From the IMG/VR virus record IMGVR_UViG_3300038393_000804, positions 147,598 to 211,597 of that record: a DNA stretch of 64,000 nucleotides. The stretch is one strand, 5' to 3'. Made by a program: the position numbers and the translations under genes. This document shows, in pieces, positions 923 to 12,500 of the stretch (positions are counted from its first letter, which is position 1; each line of letters starts with the position of its first letter). The notes below the pieces were generated by a model that saw nothing but the letters and a program-made list of their open reading frames with translations, was not told the origin of the DNA and searched no databases. This DNA is from a virus (lineage: Duplodnaviria; Heunggongvirae; Uroviricota; Caudoviricetes).

Positions 923-978
923 GCAATAGACACCAATCCGAAGTTCTTCTCCATATCATAGGTGCCAAGTAAGCCCCA

Positions 979-1061
979 TCGGGCATGGCGAAATTGGCAG
1001 ACGCAGACGGAGATAGCTCTGTCCGCCGAGAGGCGTGTGGGTTCGAGTCCCACTGTCGGAT
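979..1061 (+). tRNA. tRNA-Leu-type (long variable arm) RNA with non-canonical anticodon arm
   Basis: Leu-type D loop TGGCGAAATTGGCAGACGC, variable arm CGCC-GAGA-GGCG, T arm GTGGG-TTCGAGT-CCCAC; anticodon arm GACGGAG-ATAG-CTCTGTC has no 7-nt loop. Confidence 0.6.
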
Positions 1062-1118
1062 GGTAAGCACTGAAGCCTATGATTGTATCTTATTTTCTTC
1101 CTGCCCAAGGAGCTTTTT

Positions 1119-1380: not shown

Positions 1381-1653
1381 ATGAAGAAGCTTCCAAAAGG
1401 AACGATTATCCGCATAGGGCAGAATAAAAGGAAATCTATTTCTATGGATGCAATTGGAATGGATTTTGAGTTGCCAAGGGATTTGGCCTGGGATGACCAT
1501 GCTAACATGGCAACGATTGTAAGAAAGCCAAAAGGATGCGGCTGGCTTGGCAGCGTAGTGTCTCACAGGCTAGACCCATATGGAGATAGGATTATTTCTA
1601 TTCCTTCTTCTAGTAATAAGGAAGCTGCTAGGCTGCTGGACAAGGAGTGGTAG
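1381..1653 (+). CDS. Small protein with shared C-terminal tag (copy 1)
   Basis: SD AAGGAGTGA; ends SNKEAARLLDKEW. Confidence 0.8.
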   Translation: MKKLPKGTIIRIGQNKRKSISMDAIGMDFELPRDLAWDDHANMATIVRKPKGCGWLGSVVSHRLDPYGDRIISIPSSSNKEAARLLDKEW

Positions 1654-1654
1654 A

Positions 1655-1873
1655 ATGTATTACAAAGGTCAAAGAGTCAAACGAATTAAGTATGTACACC
1701 CAGGATATAATGTTCCAGTTGGTATGACAGGAACCATTATAGAAGGAGAAGGAAAAGAAAGTCCTCGTATTAAATGGGACAATGGCGTAGAATGTCATTC
1801 TTTTCTATCATGTTTAGCTCCTGTATCTAGTAATAACAAAGGGGCTTCTACCCTATTGGACAAGGAGTGGTAG
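1655..1873 (+). CDS. Small SH3/KOW-like protein with shared C-terminal tag (copy 2)
   Basis: ATG 1655 after AAGGAGTGG; YKGQRVKR...GMTGTI...RIKWDNG; ends NNKGASTLLDKEW. Confidence 0.8.
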   Translation: MYYKGQRVKRIKYVHPGYNVPVGMTGTIIEGEGKESPRIKWDNGVECHSFLSCLAPVSSNNKGASTLLDKEW

Positions 1874-1875
1874 GT

Positions 1876-2172
1876 ATGTATGAATTAGGAGAGAAAGTAC
1901 TACTTACAGATGATTCAGAGTGGTACGAACAAAACAAAAGAGAAGGTGACAATGGAGAAGAATATGCTGTTGTCGGAACCATTGTGGGTAGATGTCACCA
2001 AGGAGAGATAGAAGGAAAGTATTCTAAACACTTTAAGCACTTTCAATATTCTGTCCTCTGGGAAGATGAAACCCAAGATGAATTATATTATCGCGATATA
2101 GATTTGATGTTGGCGGAAGCTCCTCCAGTAACAAATCAAGAAGCGAAAAAACGTTTAAGCAAGGAGTGGTGA
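1876..2172 (+). CDS. Small SH3-like protein with shared C-terminal tag (copy 3)
   Basis: YELGEKVLL...VGTIV...YSVLWED; ends TNQEAKKRLSKEW. Confidence 0.8.
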   Translation: MYELGEKVLLTDDSEWYEQNKREGDNGEEYAVVGTIVGRCHQGEIEGKYSKHFKHFQYSVLWEDETQDELYYRDIDLMLAEAPPVTNQEAKKRLSKEW

Positions 2173-2173
2173 G

Positions 2174-2482
2174 ATGGCAAGAAATAGACCGAGCAAGGAG
2201 ACGGCTAACTTTAAGGTAGGCGATATCATTACGCTACAGCCAAAGGCTTATTACATAAAGCAACTCGGCAGTTGGCAGACACCACAAGCTAGAATCTTAG
2301 ATGTGTTCTGGGACGACGGTGATTTCAAGACAGGATGGTGGTATGATATTCGCGTAGTGGCTCCAGAAGATTGGCCGCAGGATGCGCTAACTTATAGGAA
2401 CTCTTATCCTGAAGAAGACCTGATGTTTCCTCAAGCGAAAAACAATATGGAAGCAAAGCGATTGCTTTCAAAGGAGTGGTAA
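2174..2482 (+). CDS. Small SH3-like protein with shared C-terminal tag (copy 4)
   Basis: FKVGDIITL...ARILDV...WWYDIRV...YPEEDL; ends NNMEAKRLLSKEW. Confidence 0.8.
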   Translation: MARNRPSKETANFKVGDIITLQPKAYYIKQLGSWQTPQARILDVFWDDGDFKTGWWYDIRVVAPEDWPQDALTYRNSYPEEDLMFPQAKNNMEAKRLLSKEW

Positions 2483-2483
2483 G

Positions 2484-2777
2484 ATGAAAGTACGAATTAA
2501 AAGTATTTCTTCCACTAGCAAGTGGTATAAAAAAATGATAGGTTAAGTCTTTGATGTAGAAAAGAAATCTAATGGTGGCTATCGGGTAATTCCTAGTGAA
2601 GATAATGAGAAGGTTCTCCGCTTGGAACCTGATGATTATAACTACTCCGAGTTTGTACGTAGGATGAATGTTCCTATGGGCAATGGAGTAGGACTAGGTA
2701 TAACAGCAGAAGACGCCGTTGAAATTGCTATTGAATCAAATAAAGAAGCCGTTAATTTATTAAGTAAGGAGTGGTAA
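2484..2777 (+). pseudogene. Tag-family gene (copy 5) interrupted by an in-frame TAA at codon 21; absent from ORF track
   Basis: ATG 2484 to TAA 2777 is one 98-codon frame with a single stop at 2544-2546; MKVRIKSISSTSKWYKKMIG*VFDVEK...SNKEAVNLLSKEW. Confidence 0.75.
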
Positions 2778-2778
2778 C

Positions 2779-3039
2779 ATGCCACCAGAAAGACGTGACT
2801 CACAAGGCAATCGTTTTAAAGTTGGCTGGGTATATGAGTATAGCTTTCATAAGCTTGAGTTAATTAGTATGGCCCCAAACAAATGCGAAGGAACTTTTAG
2901 ACTTGTAGAAAACTACGGCAGCTTGTACGCAGGTTGGGAAGGCATTCTAACCTTTGACCGTGGGTTTACTCCATTGTACCTAAGCGAATCTTTAAAGAGC
3001 AATAAGGGCGCTGCAATGCTACTAAGTAAGGAGTATTGA
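2779..3039 (+). CDS. Small protein with shared C-terminal tag (copy 6)
   Basis: FKVGWVYEY; ends SNKGAAMLLSKEY. Confidence 0.8.
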   Translation: MPPERRDSQGNRFKVGWVYEYSFHKLELISMAPNKCEGTFRLVENYGSLYAGWEGILTFDRGFTPLYLSESLKSNKGAAMLLSKEY

Positions 3040-4568: not shown

Positions 4569-5150
4569 ATGGCAGTTGAGTTGGTAAAAAAAGGGCAACG
4601 TGTTGATTTAACGAAAGGAACAAACCTTTCAAAGATTAATGTAGCATTAGGCTGGGATACAAATAAGTATGCTGGCGGAGCAGACTTTGACCTGGATGTT
4701 TCAGTATTCATGGTTAATGAATTAAATAAAACTCGTGACGAAGGCGACTTTATATTCTATAATAATCTACGTCATGCTTCTGGTGCAGTTGAGCACTCAG
4801 GGGATGAGTTGACTGGTGGCACAGAGGGCGATGATGAGACAATCAAAGTTGACCTTTCAGTAATGCCTGCTTACATTCAGAAGCTTGCTTTCGTAGTAAC
4901 TATCTATGAAGCAGAGCGTCGTTCTCAAAACTTCGGACAAGTATCCAATGCTTATGTCCGCGTGTATGACCAAATCACAAATGAAGAAATCCTTCGCTTT
5001 GATTTAGGTGAGGACTTCTCTATTGAAACTGGAGTAGCAGTTTGTGAGATTTATAAAGTAAACGGCGAATGGAAATTCAACGCTATCGGTGCTGGTTATG
5101 CAAATGGCCTAGCTGGTTTCGTTAAAGATTATGGATTAACAGTCGCTTAA
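4569..5150 (+). CDS. terD: TerD-family stress protein (second paralogue)
   Basis: KGQRVDLTK, LGWD, DFDLDVS, FIFYNN, HSGDELTGGTEGDDE, NFGQV, WKFNAIGAG. Confidence 0.92.
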   Translation: MAVELVKKGQRVDLTKGTNLSKINVALGWDTNKYAGGADFDLDVSVFMVNELNKTRDEGDFIFYNNLRHASGAVEHSGDELTGGTEGDDETIKVDLSVMPAYIQKLAFVVTIYEAERRSQNFGQVSNAYVRVYDQITNEEILRFDLGEDFSIETGVAVCEIYKVNGEWKFNAIGAGYANGLAGFVKDYGLTVA

Positions 5151-5155
5151 AATAC

Positions 5156-5176
5156 GAGAGGGCTTCGGCCCTTTCT
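5156..5176 (+). terminator. Intrinsic terminator
   Basis: GAGAGGGC-TTCG-GCCCTTTC followed by T-rich tract. Confidence 0.7.
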
Positions 5177-5211
5177 TATATATAGATATTATATCTACAG
5201 GGGGAATGAAG

Positions 5212-5325
5212 ATGTCAGGGACGATTCTTACATTCGTGGTTGGTTATGTGGTAGGTCACTTCTTTCACGATAATGTGAAGGCAGCAGCAAAACATGTAGT
5301 GGACAAAATCAAAAACAAATATTAA
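5212..5325 (+). CDS. 37-aa single-TM protein within ter cluster
   Basis: SD GGGGGA; MSGTILTFVVGYVVGHFFHDNVKAAAKHVVDKIKNKY. Confidence 0.6.
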   Translation: MSGTILTFVVGYVVGHFFHDNVKAAAKHVVDKIKNKY

Positions 5326-5342
5326 TTAGGGAGTTGGAATAG

Positions 5343-6095
5343 TTGTTATCAATCATTGGACTAGTAGTTACGTTAGTCGTACTTGAAGGTTTGCTAAGCG
5401 CAGACAATGCATTAGTACTTGCAGTAATGACAAAGAGATTACCACTTAGTCAGCAAAAGAAAGCACTTTTCTATGGTATGTGGGGCGCGATTATCTTCCG
5501 TGCTGTATGTATCTTCGGCTGGGCTTATATCGCTGATTGGGAATACTTATGGGCCATCAAAACAGTTGGTGCTTTATACCTTGCTTATTTATCTATTAAG
5601 CATTTTGCCTCTAAGAAGAAAGACGAAGACGGCGATGGTATCAATGACGAGTTCGAAGAAAACAAGGTTCAAGCATTCTTTGGTAAGCTTGGCTTGTCGC
5701 CATTCGTTACAACAATTATCTCTGTTGAGTTAATGGACATTGCTTTCTCTGTTGATAGTATCTTAGCAGCATTTGCTTTATCTCAAAGCTTCTATGTATT
5801 AATCGCTGGTGGTATCCTTGGTATCTTAATGATGCGTTCTGTTGCAGGTGTATTCATTAAGCTTATCAATAAGGTTCCAGAGATGGAAGGAACAGCATTC
5901 GTTCTTATCTTCTTGATTGCGGTTAAGATGTTTGTAACTGAACTGCATGAAGTAGGTAACCTTATCGGTCAACACTGGACTTCATATGAAGCTCCAGACT
6001 GGTTATTCTTTATTGTTTTAATCATCACATTTGGATTAACATTTGTGGTTCACGCATTAAAGAACAAGGGCAGCAAGAAAAATGTTGCCGCGTAA
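5343..6095 (+). CDS. terC: TerC-family membrane protein
   Basis: LEGLLSADNALVLA, DIAFSVDSILAAFALS, GGILGILMMR; multiple TM helices; TTG start. Confidence 0.92.
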   Translation: MLSIIGLVVTLVVLEGLLSADNALVLAVMTKRLPLSQQKKALFYGMWGAIIFRAVCIFGWAYIADWEYLWAIKTVGALYLAYLSIKHFASKKKDEDGDGINDEFEENKVQAFFGKLGLSPFVTTIISVELMDIAFSVDSILAAFALSQSFYVLIAGGILGILMMRSVAGVFIKLINKVPEMEGTAFVLIFLIAVKMFVTELHEVGNLIGQHWTSYEAPDWLFFIVLIITFGLTFVVHALKNKGSKKNVAA

Positions 6096-6165
6096 TATCA
6101 GACAACTTATCAGCATGATTACATCTATAGACAGAGCCATCAGAGCTATCAGACGATTCTTTAAA

Positions 6166-6190
6166 TAAGCGGTCTTTCGGGGCCGCTTTA
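6166..6190 (+). terminator. Hairpin/terminator
   Basis: AAGCGGTC-TTTCGG-GGCCGCTTT. Confidence 0.55.
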
Positions 6191-6211
6191 CTAATTTCTA
6201 GGGGGAGAAAC

Positions 6212-7003
6212 ATGTTGGGTAACGTAATTGATTTAAAAAAGAAATCTGCAATCGTATTAGAGAAGTTAGGGCTTGCTGGTCTTCAAGCGAACATCGTATT
6301 CGCTATCGACAAATCAGGTTCTATGGGATGGGAAATTGACAAAGGGAATGTTCAAGAACAAGCTGACCGCTTCATCGGCGTTGGAATGAACATGGACCCA
6401 AACAAATCAATCGACATCTATGCTTTCAATCATGGCTATGAATATATTGGTTCTGCCAATGAAAGCAATCACAAAGACTTCTTAAAGAAGAAGGGTCTTC
6501 GTGCATCTGGTGGTACGGAGTATGCTCCAGTAATGAAACAAATTATTGCTAAGTACGGCACAGCTATCACTCCACAAGTTGTTCAAGAAGAAGTAACAAA
6601 AGAAGTGGAAGCTGGATTCCTTGGCAAACTGTTCGGTGCAAAATCAAAGACCGTAACAGAAGTAGTAAGCAAGACGGTTATGCCTGAAGATGTAAAGCCT
6701 GTTAAGATTCCTACACTGGTATTCTTCATGACAGATGGTGACAATGGTGACCGTTCTGAAACAACTCGTGTGATTACTGAGGCTGCTAAGCAGGGTATCT
6801 TCTGGCAGTTCATCGGTATCGGCAATGAGTCATTCAACTATCTGCAATCATTGGATGATTTAACAGGCCGCTACTTAGACAACGCTGACTTCACAAAGAT
6901 TTCAGATGTGAATGGAATTGCTGACGAGAAGCTTTACGAAGCCGTATTAAAAGAATTCCCTAACTGGTTACGTCAAGCGAAATCAAAAGGTGTTGTATTG
7001 TAA
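6212..7003 (+). CDS. Ter-associated von Willebrand factor A domain protein
   Basis: MIDAS DKSGSM, GGTEY, FMTDGD, FWQFIGIG, YLDNADF; amphipathic insert GFLGKLFG. Confidence 0.88.
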   Translation: MLGNVIDLKKKSAIVLEKLGLAGLQANIVFAIDKSGSMGWEIDKGNVQEQADRFIGVGMNMDPNKSIDIYAFNHGYEYIGSANESNHKDFLKKKGLRASGGTEYAPVMKQIIAKYGTAITPQVVQEEVTKEVEAGFLGKLFGAKSKTVTEVVSKTVMPEDVKPVKIPTLVFFMTDGDNGDRSETTRVITEAAKQGIFWQFIGIGNESFNYLQSLDDLTGRYLDNADFTKISDVNGIADEKLYEAVLKEFPNWLRQAKSKGVVL

Positions 7004-7206
7004 TGAGTCATCGTAACTTACGATTCATTATTGCCGCTATCCTGTACGTTATTATTGCAACAGCTTTAATTAATCTTGGATTTAATTTCACTGGATTCTT
7101 CGGGCTTATTAAACTATTCCTTCTTGGGTTTGGTTTACATGCGCTTGTTGATTTCGGTTTGCATAAATTAAAGAAAAAGAAAAAGGAGAATGATGCAAAT
7201 GTATAA
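7003..7206 (+). CDS. Two-TM membrane protein
   Basis: TAATG coupling to vWA gene; two hydrophobic helices, poly-K tail. Confidence 0.7.
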   Translation: MSHRNLRFIIAAILYVIIATALINLGFNFTGFFGLIKLFLLGFGLHALVDFGLHKLKKKKKENDANV

Positions 7207-7283
7207 CACAGAAAGTTTTCCATATGTGGATATCCAAAACATCCTAGAGAAATACTACGAGCAGGCAGAATAATTTTTTCACT

Positions 7284-7310
7284 GGGGCACCCTTCGCGGG
7301 GTGTCTTTTA
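7284..7310 (+). terminator. Intrinsic terminator
   Basis: GGGGCACCC-TTCGC-GGGGTGTCTTTT. Confidence 0.6.
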
Positions 7311-7313
7311 TAT

Positions 7314-7400
7314 GCTGCTGTAGTTCAGCGGTAGAATACTCCCCCAAGAGTCCACATCGACGGGGAGAGGTCGGAGGTTCGAATCCTCCTGGCAGCTCCA
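7314..7400 (+). tRNA. tRNA-like gene (Gly-like body, U73, encoded CCA) with 17-19-nt anticodon loop
   Basis: Acceptor GCTGCTG/TGGCAGC, D arm GTTC/GAAT, T arm GGAGG-TTCGAAT-CCTCC, 3' TCCA; CTCCCC/GGGGAG encloses CAAGAGTCCACATCGAC. Confidence 0.7.
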
Positions 7401-7454
7401 AGGGTTTTGTTTGGCAGCTTTCCCGCTTAAATAAAAAATGTTGACCAGAGCCAG

Positions 7455-8120
7455 GAGATATGACGGTTTATTCTCCTTCCAAAAACTAACCCCGTCACCA
7501 GATAAAGAAGATGCCAAGAACTTTTAGTAATCCCATATATATCGGCTGGGATAGCACGGTGGGCCGAAGAATATCCGTGACGACATATCTGAAGTCTTCT
7601 TGTCTTACTTAGAGATTAGGATGCGTAGGTGCTAGCTGGGGGATGCACCAGCAGATAAATGAAGGAGCGTGACCTGACAGCCTATCCGAAATCTAAGTTA
7701 ATCTTATGTGAGCTGACGGTATGAGAATTCATACTGTGTTCTGACATAAGATATTAGGAATCTCTAGTAAGGGGAAGATAAGTAGGGAACTACTGGCTGC
7801 GGTCTAGGCGGCATTCTAGACTGTACCTAGCTTTAGCTTCGGCTAATGGAGGCTTAGTTGCCAGCCACGAAAAAATTCGTACTGCTAGATAAACCGAATT
7901 CATGTCATGCAAGGGACGCCCAAGCAATAGAAGAGCCAAGGGTCACGGCACTGTCCGCCCCTAAAATTCCCTATGAAAGTCAGTGGCTAGTAGACGAAGT
8001 ATATGTAAGACGTGTAATCCCACGGCGAGTGGTGGCGCATTCCCTCAGTAGTGAAGACCGAGTACGAGTATATACGTGAAATAACTGAGTGGCAGGTATT
8101 CAGTTGAGCTGAAGTCCCAT
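7455..8120 (+). ncRNA. Large ornate ncRNA candidate (GOLLD/ROOL-like context); boundaries approximate
   Basis: ~750-nt gap with no SD-led ORF, dense nested helices (e.g. 7701-7709/7744-7752, 7716-7724/7729-7737, 7794-7799/7862-7867, cUUCGg at 7837-7842); directly follows a tRNA-like gene. Confidence 0.65.
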
Positions 8121-8188
8121 TGTATTTGTTAAACAAAAGGAGGCAAAGATAGTGATAAATAAACACATCAAAAAGGGGAAAACATCTT

Positions 8189-8905
8189 ATGAATTACAAA
8201 GTATCTTACAACATGGCGGTGGAACTTCTTAGAGTATACATGGAGAAGATTTACCAGCTGGACAAATTTAAAGGAAACATTATCAAGCTCCAACAACTAT
8301 ATGAATTGAATGAAGAGCTTCGTAAGCTCATTGAACAATTAAAGGAAGATGGACATGATACTGATTTACTTATCAGAGAAATTAAAGAGAAACTAGAGCC
8401 TAAGTATAACTACCAACGGTTGGTTGTGAATGTGGACGGCGCGGCACGAGGGAACAACGATACCACCAGACCGAATGTAAGCGGCATATCCTACATTGTT
8501 CGTGGAGATAGTCAGCTATTACACAAGGGAGCGAAGTATCTCGGTTCATCCATTCAGTTGCCAAGACTCCAACATGAAGACCCAGAAAAACACATCGCAG
8601 AAGCAGAAGCTACAAACAATACAGCTGAATATGTTGCATTAATCGAAGCATTAGAATACCTATTGGCGAACGGTTTAAATGCAAAACACATTGATGTCTT
8701 TAGCGATTCAAGAATGGTTGTCACACAAGTCAACCGAATTTCTACTACAAAAGCGCCACACTTAATACGATTACGTGATTGTGCATTAGAATTACTAGAA
8801 GAGTTTGATAGTATTAATCTCATTCATGTACCACGAGAAGAGAATGCGGAAGCAGATGAACTGGTCAATGAATTATTAGATAGCATGGAGGCTCAAGCAG
8901 GATAA
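8189..8905 (+). CDS. rnhA: Ribonuclease HI with N-terminal helical extension
   Basis: VNVDGAARGN, ATNNTAEYVAL, VFSDSRMVV, HVPREENAEADEL. Confidence 0.88.
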   Translation: MNYKVSYNMAVELLRVYMEKIYQLDKFKGNIIKLQQLYELNEELRKLIEQLKEDGHDTDLLIREIKEKLEPKYNYQRLVVNVDGAARGNNDTTRPNVSGISYIVRGDSQLLHKGAKYLGSSIQLPRLQHEDPEKHIAEAEATNNTAEYVALIEALEYLLANGLNAKHIDVFSDSRMVVTQVNRISTTKAPHLIRLRDCALELLEEFDSINLIHVPREENAEADELVNELLDSMEAQAG

Positions 8906-8970
8906 ATTATTCTTGCAATTCTGTCTTATAAAGCTTATCGTTAATAAAAGAGACCAGGAGGGCTTCTGCC

Positions 8971-9360
8971 ATGACAAATTTAGTTCAACGTTTAAAGCCA
9001 TTTGTTACAAAGTTTAGTGCATCTTTGAATGCAAATTCTCATGGAGAAACCGTGACTGTCGGCGGTAAGGTTACAGCTATCCTGAACATGACAGATTTTG
9101 GTGAAGGTGTTTACCTCACATTAGACGATGGAATCGGAGAGACACAGGTTGTCTTGTCTCCAAAAGCATATGAATTATATGTGAAGAATAACGGCGAGTT
9201 AAACAAAGACGATGCTGTCATTGTTGAAGGCAAGGTAGGCCGTCTTGATACTTCTCATTCTTACGATGATAAGAAGGGTAAGAAGATAACCGTCAACAAA
9301 CATAAAACAGAAACAGTGAGAGTACTATCATACCAGATTGCTCTGCTGCCTGAAGCATAA
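8971..9360 (+). CDS. Stand-alone OB-fold nucleic-acid-binding protein resembling the DnaE C-terminal OB domain
   Basis: VTVGGKVTAI...YLTLDDGIGETQVVLSPKAYE...DDAVIVEGKV. Confidence 0.75.
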   Translation: MTNLVQRLKPFVTKFSASLNANSHGETVTVGGKVTAILNMTDFGEGVYLTLDDGIGETQVVLSPKAYELYVKNNGELNKDDAVIVEGKVGRLDTSHSYDDKKGKKITVNKHKTETVRVLSYQIALLPEA

Positions 9361-9376
9361 TTAATTTGAATGCACA

Positions 9377-9407
9377 GAGCTACTCTTCGGGGTGGCTCTT
9401 TTATTTT
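9377..9407 (+). terminator. Intrinsic terminator
   Basis: AGAGCTACTC-TTCG-GGGTGGCTCT + T tract. Confidence 0.75.
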
Positions 9408-9542
9408 TAGCTAGGACACCGATTAGAGGGATACGTGTAGAAAGTGGAGGGTAATTTCCACAAAAGTTTTTGGTGACATCACCCTATTTATGGGTGTATC
9501 ATATATGTCATAAACAATTTAATCAGGAAAGTTGGTGGTCAA

Positions 9543-12500
9543 GTGACGCACGATTTATCGTTTGCTGTTGATACTAAACAGGAAGTCACTAATATTCCGT
9601 ACAATGTTTTTAGTACGGTACGTTTTACGCATCTGCATCTTCATACTCCATGGAGTTTGTTGGATGGATTCTGTCGGATTGATGACTTAATCGAGCTTGC
9701 CAAAGAATACGGAATGGATTCAATAGGTATTTCGGACCATGGTGTTTGTCATGGGCATATTGAATTCTATACGAAGGCGAAGAAGGCTGGATTAAAACCT
9801 ATTCTGGGTAACGAGATTTATCTCACACCGCACAGGACATGGAAGAAAGAGGAGTACGACAAGCAGCCTGGATTCTGGTTTGACAAAAAGAATCAAACTG
9901 GCTGGCGTCCAAATATGGCTCATATGCTTCTGATTGCAAGAACAAATGAAGGCTATGAGAACTTACTGGAACTGACCAGTCGTGCCCAGCTGGAGGGCTT
10001 CTATCGTAAGCCTCGCGCAGACTATGAACTGATTAAAAGATATGGCAAAGGAATTATTGCCACAACTGCTTGTCTCGGCGGAGAAGTTCCTCAGTTGATT
10101 CAAAGAGGCAGGTATAAAGTAGCGAAGAACCTGATTCGCTTCTATCAGAAATGTTTTGATGAATTGTATCTTGAGATTCAACCGTCAGACATGCCTGAAC
10201 AAATATTGGTCAATGAGGTTCTGAGACAATGGTCAGTCGAGATGAACATCCCGCTTGTAGCCACTTCAGACGCCCATATGCTACGCAAAGAAGAGAAGCC
10301 TATTCACGCTGCCTTAACAACAATTGGACGCAGTGAGGACGCTTCAGACATCTCTGTGTATGAGCATTGTTACTTCATGAGTGCTCAAGAGATGCTCGAC
10401 TTTGGCATCCCACATGAAGCACTAGAGAATGCGTACCAGATTTCTCAGAAGTGTAATGTGGAATTAGAACTGGGCGACATTAAGTTCCCTAAGTTTGATG
10501 TTCCATCTGGACATACATTTGATACCTACATTGCACAGCTATGTAACGTAGCCTTATTTGAATTAGCAATGGACAGAGATATCAACATTGTTGAGTACCA
10601 GGAACGGATGAACTATGAGCTTGATATTATTGCCAAGAAAAACATTTCAGCTTATCTATTAATCGTTTGGGATTATATTAAGTATGCGAAAGACAATGGG
10701 ATATTAGTAGGCCCAGGCCGTGGTTCTGGTGCTGGTTCTCTTGTCTGTTACCTGCTTCATATTACAAACTTAGACCCCATCAAATATGATTTGCTGTTTG
10801 AGCGTTTCATTAATCCAGAGCGACCTGGCTTCCCAGATATTGATACGGACTTCGACTACCTCAGACGACATGAAGTTATTGATTATGTTACAGAGAAGTA
10901 CGGAGCCGACCAAGTAGCACAGATTGGTACGTTCACTACCTTATCCACAAAAGCAGCATTCAAAGATATTGGCCGCGGTCTAGGCATTGACCACAACATT
11001 ATCAATGACATGAATAAGCTAATCCCTGTTCATCAAGGAAAGGTTATGTCCATTGAAGATGCGATGGAAGAAGTCGCGGACTTACAGCCGTATATCAGTC
11101 AGTATCCTGAACTGTTTGAGTTAGCCTCTAAGGTAGAGAAGCTTCCGCGTTCTGCATCTATCCATGCTTGTGGTATGTTAATCACGCCTGACCCAGTATC
11201 AAAGGCAGCTCCATTAATGCGTGGTAAGAACGGTGAGCGTGTTACCCAGTATGAAGGGCCAACGTTAGAGTCAATCGGATACATTAAGTTTGACTTCTTA
11301 GGTTTAAAGAACTTATCGGTTGTTGATATTGCCAGACGCCTTGTAAAGGAACGTCACGGCGTTGACATTGACCCAGATAGCTTAGAGCCTACAGACCCGA
11401 AAGTATTCCAGACCATTAAAGACGGATGGACTGACGGCGTGTTCCAGTTTGAGTCAGATGGTATGAAGAAGATGTTCAGAGGAATGAACAAGGTAGACTT
11501 CAACACACTGGTAGCTGGAAACGCATTGTATCGTCCAGGCCCGATGGATTATATTCCGCAATACCAGCGTCGTGCGAATGGTCAAGAAGACATTCCAGCT
11601 TTACATCCAGAGTATGATGCCATTACCAAAGAGACTTTCGGTATCATGATTTACCAAGAGCAGGTTATGATAGTGTCCCAACGGATGGCTGGATACTCGA
11701 AAGGCGAAGCGGACGTACTACGTAAAGCCGTAGGTAAGAAGAAGAAGGAAATCTTAGAGCCAGCTTTAGAGGAGCTGGAAGCAAAGATGATTGAACACGG
11801 CACACCACAGCACGTTGCCAAGCGTATATGTGATGACATCCGTCCGTTCGCAGGCTACGCGTTTAATAAGTCCCACGCGGCTTGTTATAGCTTCATTGCG
11901 TATCAGACTGCCTTCTTCAAGACGTACTATCCAATAGAGTTCATGACAGCTCTATTAACCATTGGTGCAGACAAGGAAGAAAAGGTTATTAACTACATCA
12001 ATGAATGTAAGCGAATGGGAATCAATATCCTGCCGCCTGACATTAATACATCAGGTGTAGGTTTTACCGTTGAAGGTAATGATATACGTTTCGGTTTAGC
12101 AGCTATCAAAGGACTAGGCGAAGCAGTAATATCTAATATTATGGAAGCAAGACCATATACAAGTCTGCAGAACCTGGTTGAAACACTTCCGAAAAAGCAG
12201 CTTAACAAACGGAGCATTCAAGTCCTAGCAAGGTCTGGTGCGCTGGACGAGCTGGGCAAGGATGCATTGAACCGTATGGACATCCTGCAGCAATTGTACA
12301 TGATTCGTGGAGATAAGGATGACTTGTCTGACGAAATCAATGGATTCACTGATAAGGTTAGACTGGAAGCAGAGAAGGAATTACTGGGGCTTTATGTCTC
12401 TGGTAATCCTCTCTCCGATGTTTCTCAGCCAGTGAATTGGGATTACCTGGGCGACTACGAGAACGTCAACACGGGCGGCATCTTGACTTCATTCAAAGTG

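Follow-up and report, generated by a model that had tools for sequence, protein, structure and literature searches.

To our knowledge, only a handful of large ornate RNA families have been described; recent work on the phage-borne ones, GOLLD (RF01998) and ROOL (RF03087), showed that they assemble into cages made of RNA alone, of unknown purpose. Free-standing stable RNAs, such as 6S, SRP and Y RNAs and, through its P1 helix, RNase P, usually have their 5′ and 3′ ends paired. GOLLD RNAs are large, structured phage RNAs of Bacillota-type hosts that lie beside, or are interleaved with, tRNA genes; ROOL RNAs are phage or prophage RNAs of ~600 nt that occur near tRNA islands and are abundant. The function of both is unknown. 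In GOLLD, the 3′ region is conserved and the 5′ region varies, and tRNAs lie within the linker (bioRxiv 10.1101/2024.12.08.627333).

Here, we describe a gene-free gap of a soil jumbo phage that is conserved among some ten related phages, contains helices, is modular in make-up and matches no Rfam family. Like GOLLD, it is large and structured, lies beside tRNA genes in a phage of a Bacillota-type host, and has a conserved 3′ part and a variable 5′ part; with ROOL it shares the phage setting, a similar size and the nearness to tRNA genes. However, no covariance model of GOLLD matches it, and the locus consists of repeated end-paired clamps that can be separated by genes. Similarly, no ROOL model matches, the conserved motifs are different, and the locus is an array where ROOL is one multi-pseudoknotted unit. 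Y RNA-like RNAs (YrlA, RF02553) and other tRNA-linked modular stable RNAs combine paired ends with a tRNA-like module, as does one clamp of this phage (window 953–1088), but YrlA has no match in the target region; its sole weak hit (E 0.0066), far below the gathering score, is on ordinary tRNAs of a related locus, L015. New here are a homology of ~115 nt between one clamp and the P6 extension of a group I intron, an anticodon arm identical to part of 23S rRNA helix 89, and metatranscriptome cover of parts of two modules. A further, unrelated ornate family would widen the class to which GOLLD and ROOL belong. The appeal of this one lies in its simple repeated plan, in a sub-domain that seems to double as an intron accessory, and in a neighbouring tRNA that appears to display an rRNA helix; moreover, its modules of 100–250 nt are small and tractable for structure work.

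A gene-free gap without a match to catalogued RNA families

The window, by which we mean the whole 64,000-nt stretch of DNA analysed, is part of a 264-kb virus record. Its DnaE is ~60% identical to DnaE of the Bacillus jumbo phages KLEB27-3, WH1 and Edson, and soil and rhizosphere metagenomes contain DNA near-identical to the window. An earlier sequence-only reading had pointed to a long interval without a credible ORF, and we find such an interval at positions 7401–8188. The longest frames, of 33–73 aa, are short and unconserved, and many indels among relatives are not multiples of three; we therefore consider the gap to be non-coding. On its upstream side lies a terD-terD-terC-vWA module with a small membrane ORF, ending by 7206, and on its downstream side an RNase H-like gene (8189–8905; RNase H family match), followed by genes for an OB-fold protein and an intact DnaE. 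The predicted fold of the whole gap beats shuffled sequences only marginally (z −1.74 on the + strand, −0.58 on the − strand); the support for structure described below comes from phage-to-phage comparison and not from folding energy.

The same reading had proposed a GOLLD/ROOL-type RNA. A scan of the whole window with Rfam 15 at the gathering score returned tRNA matches only, and cmscan of positions 7200–8300 at E-values up to 10 found no GOLLD, ROOL, OLE (RF01071), raiA (RF03072), group I or group II intron, RNase P or tmRNA. Nine homologous loci, searched at E-values up to 0.5, likewise gave no match to GOLLD, ROOL, OLE, raiA or the group I intron. Membership of a catalogued family thus finds no support; the broader proposal is upheld: the locus is large and conserved, encodes structured non-coding RNA, belongs to a Bacillota-type phage, lies beside tRNA or tRNA-like genes and has a GOLLD/ROOL-like lifestyle. 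BLAST of the gap and of its L015 homologue against 50,697 phage records gave zero matches, and BLAST and nhmmer of the gap against loci of KLEB27-3, WH1, Edson and one IMG/VR relative gave chance words only. Scans of IMG/VR with RNase H peptides, the tRNA-loop motif and the 3′ motif of clamp B2 yielded no useful match, and an RNase H profile search of genome contigs found only distant cellular RNase H genes. Literature searches, which were not exhaustive, turned up no account of these RNAs or of a tRNA bearing helix 89.

Homologues reveal a composite, modular locus

There are 42 full-length relatives, at 50–89% identity, of the RNase H-like protein encoded downstream. We fetched the contigs that encode them and searched these with nhmmer and a profile. 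A conserved non-coding element is present upstream of the RNase H-like gene in L014, L137, L015, L138/L139, L140, L141/L142, L144–L146 and L147; L016/L017 have only part of it, and L143 gives a weak match. With nhmmer and a covariance model, its 3′ part, module B, was found ahead of the RNase H-like gene in 11 distinct lineages, whose RNase H proteins are 52–89% identical. The structures described below rest on about ten sequences. We conclude that the locus is a + strand array of a tRNA-like gene, clamp A, hairpin P1, a variable middle and clamp B2.

A single RNA of ~650 nt, as first envisaged, is contradicted by the two closest relatives, L014 and L137, in which two complete protein genes split the 5′ and 3′ parts at about window position 7700. 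Window 7200–7707 and 7697–8190 align to these loci as two blocks ~700 nt apart, and the ~700-nt insertion carries two ORFs that match phrog_19476 (unknown function); searches of Pfam and PHROGs detected no homing-endonuclease or endonuclease domain in them. In both loci the second inserted ORF ends in the tag TNKEAKxLLK, as do the ORFs that abut module B in L145 and L141. The same kind of tag is found on cassette genes at window 1381–3039; these ORFs are therefore complete genes and not exons. Small genes adjoining RNA modules, most of them with this tag, lie at L014 1873–2573, L137 1840–2527, L145 230–786 and L141 1361–1821.

Most lineages carry the 3′ block (module B) only, and of module B, L016/L017 have the B2 core alone. 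Module B and the RNase H-like gene are separated by one 233-aa gene in L141/L142 and by two small genes in L016/L017, and gene cassettes separate A from B in L014 and L137. This flexible order of modules, with B2 alone in some phages and intervening genes in others, fits independent RNAs better than a single leader. The tRNA-like gene that had been noticed next to the RNA is directly upstream of it, and a tRNA or tRNA-like gene occupies that position in seven lineages (the window, L014, L137, L015, L138, L147 and L016); in L014 and L137 the 3′ end of the tRNA abuts the RNA without a spacer.

Covariation supports hairpin P1 and the closing helices of two clamps

De novo alignment, which had been proposed as a check on the sequence-only reading, revealed covariation in hairpin P1, in the closing helices of clamps A and B2 and in a hairpin near the 3′ end of B2. 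Hairpin P1 (7701–7752, + strand) consists of an outer stem (7701–7709/7744–7752; ATCTTATGT/ACATAAGAT) and an inner stem (7716–7724/7729–7737; ACGGTATGA/TCATACTGT), followed by the conserved sequence AUAUUAGGAA. Both stems had been picked out by eye; they are real, and together they make up this one hairpin. Across nine sequences P1 is 95.6% paired, with compensatory changes in 13 of its 20 pairs; none of 500 shuffles was as good, and controls slid along the alignment were 29–52% paired. The many G-U pairs in P1 indicate that the RNA is on the + strand only. A further helix, proposed at ~7605–7615/7761–7770, holds in part: a 12-bp pairing (7606–7618/7759–7770) can form in the window and in L014, but it is absent from L137 and from lineages that lack the 5′ part.

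The variable middle of module B (7753–7881, + strand) occurs as two unrelated types among the homologues. In the window, this middle contains UGGCUG...CAGCCA and a cUUCGg hairpin; L137, a close relative of the window, has the other type, which suggests modular exchange. A scan of column pairs gave a candidate UAG/CUG (UAA/UUG) pairing of the element behind P1 with GAGYUGAAG; the C/U position of this pairing covaries with GCCAAR too, which leaves its partner ambiguous.

Clamp B2 (7882–8130, + strand) is the conserved core of the locus. It is closed by a helix at 7907–7917/8114–8125 and includes GCCCAAG (7918–7924), a 3-bp helix (7923–7925/8108–8110) and GCUGAAGUC (8108–8116). A covariance model of B2, R1, matched 11 lineages with E-values of 1e-12 to 1e-44. 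The closing helix is 91.4% paired, with compensatory changes in 13 of 14 pairs, whereas slid controls were 34–44% paired and 0 of 500 shuffles did as well; G-U pairs in module B again place the RNA on the + strand. Just 5′ of GAGYUGAAG, a 3′ hairpin (8083–8089/8099–8105, + strand) is found in 11/11 sequences with a conserved loop, GG.UGG, on stems that differ from lineage to lineage (CUGAG/UUCAG, UCUGG/CCAGA, CCCCG/CGGGG, CCAAG/CUUGG, CUCAU/AUGAG and others). The CTCAGT/ACTGAG helix suggested earlier (8045/8084) competes with this preserved hairpin, and we discard it. The conserved single strands of B2 include GCCAAR, a repeated GUAAGNC, UUCCCU, CGUCCCUGUGCG and GAGYUGAAGUCC. RNAalifold on MAFFT alignments did not resolve the interior of B2 or the 3′ hairpin, owing to register shifts. 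A search of the genome with R1 detected no second copy of B2; the same model gave one unconvincing match in G001 (E 0.69) and none in G002 or KLEB27-3.

Module A and B2 share a clamp plan

Upstream of P1, a lineage-specific 5′ element (7452–7500, + strand) contains a GGAGA/UCUCC hairpin; its loop, UGACGG, is complementary to CCGUCA (7492–7497) and could pair with it. The complementarity of TGACGG (7461–7466) to CCGTCA is present as originally noted; the element is near-invariant among the window, L014 and L137, so there is no covariation signal either way, and from the letters we infer a possible pseudoknot. A weak sigma-70-like promoter match (TTGGCA-17-AAAAAT, 7411–7439, + strand; 9/12 matches, with such sites no commoner than in shuffles) sits in a 51-nt spacer that is absent from L014 and L137.

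Clamp module A (about 7501–7607, + strand) has a closing helix at ~7501–7512/7594–7607, two inner hairpins, and the motifs GAUGCCAAG (7510–7518) and CUGAAGUC (7589–7596); a variable linker with a hairpin follows (7608–7700, + strand). Homologues of module A are present in L014, L137, L138/L139 and L016, each right behind a tRNA or tRNA-like gene. Among five aligned A-type clamps, 13 of 23 predicted pairs show compensatory changes, and an alignment of three sequences agrees with that of five.

Modules A and B2 have a plan in common, in which a long helix closes the ends and flanks GAUGCCAAG...YUGAAGUC. We scanned 234 kb of fetched loci, on both strands, for the motif combined with the helix. 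All matches were on the + strand and coincided with mapped A-type or B2 modules, and the scan revealed the small A-type clamps behind the tRNA or tRNA-like genes of L138/L139 and L016. A third clamp, at window 953–1088, has the form AUAUCAUAGGU-GCCAAG...CUGAAG-CCUAUGAU and encloses an odd tRNA-like element (978–1062) for which ARAGORN reads a 4-nt anticodon, AUAG. Less strict matches in the rest of the genome occur within open reading frames, and we took them as chance.

A sub-domain of B2 is related to the P6 extension of a dnaE intron

R1 also matched WH1 and Edson (W02 195820–195962, E 1.4e-4; W03 193447–193601), in both cases inside a gap that splits dnaE. With nhmmer, B2 matched this dnaE intron of WH1/Edson at an E-value of 1.5e-7, with the homology limited to about 115 nt. 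The WH1 gap itself matches the Rfam model Intron_gpI (28.7 bits, E 3e-5) and has canonical R and S elements (GUUCAACGACUA, GAUAUAGUC); the stretch homologous to B2 is a 154-nt insert within P6 of this match. Parts of the intron core resemble introns of Twort and Kayvirus, but the P6 extension does not. The corresponding sub-domain of B2 (7984–8056, + strand) has GUAAGNC repeats, a CCAC/GUGG hairpin and UUCCCUC. The introns of WH1 (LC597490.1) and Edson (PV796108.1) thus have GUAAG repeats, a small hairpin, UUCCCUC and CGUCCCUGUGCG in common with the interior of B2. However, in these phages the sub-domain is a peripheral insert of a canonical, gene-interrupting intron, whereas B2 is a free-standing clamp without an intron core, exons or an Intron_gpI match. 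By this homology, a sub-domain of ~115 nt is common to a free-standing clamp and to an intron periphery. It may fold independently enough to double as a peripheral P6 extension in the self-splicing intron of related phages. We conclude that the group I ancestry of this one sub-domain is real, and that the identity of the whole of module B as an intron is not supported.

The group I intron that splits dnaE of WH1 (L233 1316–1929; LC597490.1 ~195635–196249) and of Edson (L234) is unannotated. A second gap in WH1 (L004 10001–10405) probably contains another intron. Both phages also have gene-free gaps of ~720 nt upstream of replication genes (WH1 L004 1135–1858, Edson L005 2189–2912); searched with R1, these proved not to be module B.

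A small ORF, and traces of transcription

Directly downstream of module B lies a strong Shine-Dalgarno (S-D) sequence, AAAGGAGG (8137–8144, + strand), and a 26-codon small ORF that starts with GTG at 8152 (within 8137–8232, + strand) and overlaps the start of the RNase H-like gene. Alignments place an ORF of 17–26 codons at the same position in L014, L015, L138, L140, L146 and L147, and every lineage examined has a strong S-D sequence together with a small ORF in the interval from module B to the RNase H-like gene. The encoded peptide is not conserved overall, although those of L138 and L140 both end in PSD. The ORF stops at or over the ribosome site of RNase H, a position suggestive of translational coupling or of a leader peptide. 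B2 ends 12–25 nt ahead of the S-D sequence, and a search of 7150–8300 found no terminator-like site, hence none behind B2; given these two observations, B2 could be the 5′ UTR of the RNase H-OB-DnaE operon.

Two metatranscriptome runs from different studies contain a 262-nt contig equal to window 7416–7678 and a 163-nt contig, from a relative, on 7780–7916; these contigs carry no information on ends, strand or level, and DNA carry-over into RNA libraries is possible. They are the only window-like pieces across 5000–11000, and the flanking genes are uncovered; we did not count the uncovered parts of this 6-kb stretch as silence. A DnaE fragment in the same runs belongs to another organism.

Proposed stable end-paired RNAs, and alternative readings of the gap

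Our preferred reading, held with moderate confidence, is that the RNAs of the gap are stable and end-paired and form a new family of phage RNAs, arranged as a + strand array and derived from a tRNA-led transcript. From the comparisons above we infer that the clamps may be independent, stable RNAs that act in trans. The array would be transcribed from upstream, jointly with the tRNA-like gene, and the tRNA-like piece would be freed by tRNA-processing enzymes (RNase P, plus RNase Z or exonucleases). Each clamp would be a self-contained fold with its 5′ and 3′ ends locked in the long helix that flanks the GAUGCCAAG/YUGAAGUC junction, and would then remain as a stable, exonuclease-resistant RNA. 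Such clamps could serve as scaffolds or decoys in trans that bind a protein or the translation apparatus through conserved single-stranded motifs, for which the junction, the GUAAGNC repeats, UCCCU and the hairpin loop GG.UGG are candidates.

The main rival is that module B acts in cis: as the 5′ leader of an operon of replication genes (the small ORF and the genes for the RNase H-like protein, the OB-fold protein and DnaE), it would sense a protein or metabolite and set translation or transcript stability. We take this seriously but judge it unlikely. Module B does lie on the same strand as the RNase H-like gene and directly upstream of it in most lineages, with no terminator-like site between them, and the 3′ strand of the closing helix falls just ahead of the S-D sequence and small ORF present in all lineages. 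However, module B is parted from the RNase H-like gene by the 233-aa gene of L141/L142 and by the two small genes of L016/L017; the sequence from B2 to the S-D element is not conserved across lineages, and we saw no alternative pairing that would occlude the latter. Furthermore, the related clamps (A and window 953–1088) do not precede the replication operon, and module B, at 430–560 nt, is far above the size of known leaders. The constant adjacency to RNase H-like, OB-fold and DnaE genes would also suit an RNA that marks or primes phage DNA replication, similar to ColE1 RNA II: the transcript would be linked to an origin and be processed by the neighbouring RNase H. We consider this improbable: cumulative GC skew has no break at 7–8 kb, no iterons or AT-rich unwinding element were noticed, and covarying intramolecular helices favour a folded, free RNA over a persistent R-loop.

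Module B as a group I intron, or as a group I-derived ribozyme or remnant, perhaps rearranged and perhaps processing the transcript upstream of the RNase H-like gene, seems to us highly improbable, despite the homology of the B2 interior to the P6 extension of a genuine intron. Two motifs invite the comparison, GCCAAG, which resembles the P4′/P6 junction of the Rfam consensus (CCGCAGCCAA), and CAUAAGAUAUUAGG behind P1, which resembles the J8/7-P7 element AAGAUAUAGUC; yet the AAGAU of this S-like element is base-paired with covariation, unlike J8/7. For the same reason we set aside a permuted group I arrangement, with P8 and J8/7 upstream and P3-P6-P7 downstream. The homology is confined to those ~115 nt. 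Intron_gpI (RF00028) has no match in the window region at E-values up to 10 and none in nine homologues at E-values up to 0.5, whereas our positive control, the intron of WH1, scores 28.7 bits. By eye we found no P7/R-S pairing, P3-P8 order or splice sites. Moreover, the flanking ORFs in relatives are complete and have their own C-terminal tag, the window has no exon or ORF upstream of module B, and the RNase H-like gene starts at a conserved site of its own. That the locus is a highly diverged member of GOLLD or ROOL is barely credible. The lifestyle is the same (phage-borne, large, beside tRNAs), and GOLLD, too, combines a 3′ region that is conserved with a 5′ region that varies and has tRNAs within the linker (bioRxiv 10.1101/2024.12.08.627333), but neither the window nor the nine homologues gave a covariance-model match at any threshold tried, and the conserved motifs and clamp plan differ, as judged by the Rfam models.

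The tRNA-like gene carries a copy of a 23S rRNA helix

The tRNA-like gene at the head of the array (7314–7400, + strand) has an encoded U-CCA end and scores 51.7 bits with the Rfam tRNA model (RF00005). It has an 18-nt insert where the model has 6 nt, and its other arms fit; the anticodon loop region is 17–18 nt long and not 7 nt, and ARAGORN reads an odd anticodon. The 29-nt anticodon arm (7339–7367, CUCCCCCAAGAGUCCACAUCGACGGGGAG) is identical to the apical stem-loop of helix 89 of 23S rRNA, and a metagenome scan with the 20-nt loop motif found 119 loci, every one of them (119/119) in the conserved context of 23S rRNA domain V, GGGAUAACAGGCUGAU...GGUUUGGCACCUCGAUGUCGGCUC. Numbering from the PTC landmarks A2451 and U2504–U2506, we take the copied segment to be approximately E. 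coli 2462–2488. In the large subunit, the tip of helix 89 is the region associated with orthosomycins, uL16 and late assembly. The graft is preserved in L014 (1492–1576) and L015 (2224–2314), and the positional homologue in L137 has a normal 7-nt loop. The gene looks like a tRNA scaffold that displays a ribosomal helix. A search for further rRNA mimicry in 7250–8200 and 800–1400 gave chance words of 11–13 nt only, such as the 16S word CTTAGTTGCCAGC, which is not preserved in L014; the RNA modules showed no further mimicry.

These features allow a more speculative reading, to which we assign a low probability, of the whole array as RNA mimicry aimed at the host translation machinery: the tRNA scaffold with its helix 89 arm and the clamps would bind, titrate or decoy a ribosome-directed factor. 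Candidates for this factor are assembly GTPases, rRNA-modifying enzymes and defence nucleases that target rRNA; if the idea were true, the phage would possess a counter-measure made of RNA. The locus points to a hypothesis testable in Bacillus, an interaction with the ribosome or with its assembly or defence factors.

Two other loci have unusual tRNA genes. In L015, a tRNA with a CUA anticodon (1681–1755; amber-reading, labelled Pyl by ARAGORN) lies beside a tRNA-Cys gene, upstream of the tRNA-like gene with the helix 89 arm. In L016, a 144-nt match to the tRNA model (693–836) contains an insertion of ~70 nt with a GUAA-loop hairpin, and an A-type clamp at ~848–955 lies directly 3′ of it.
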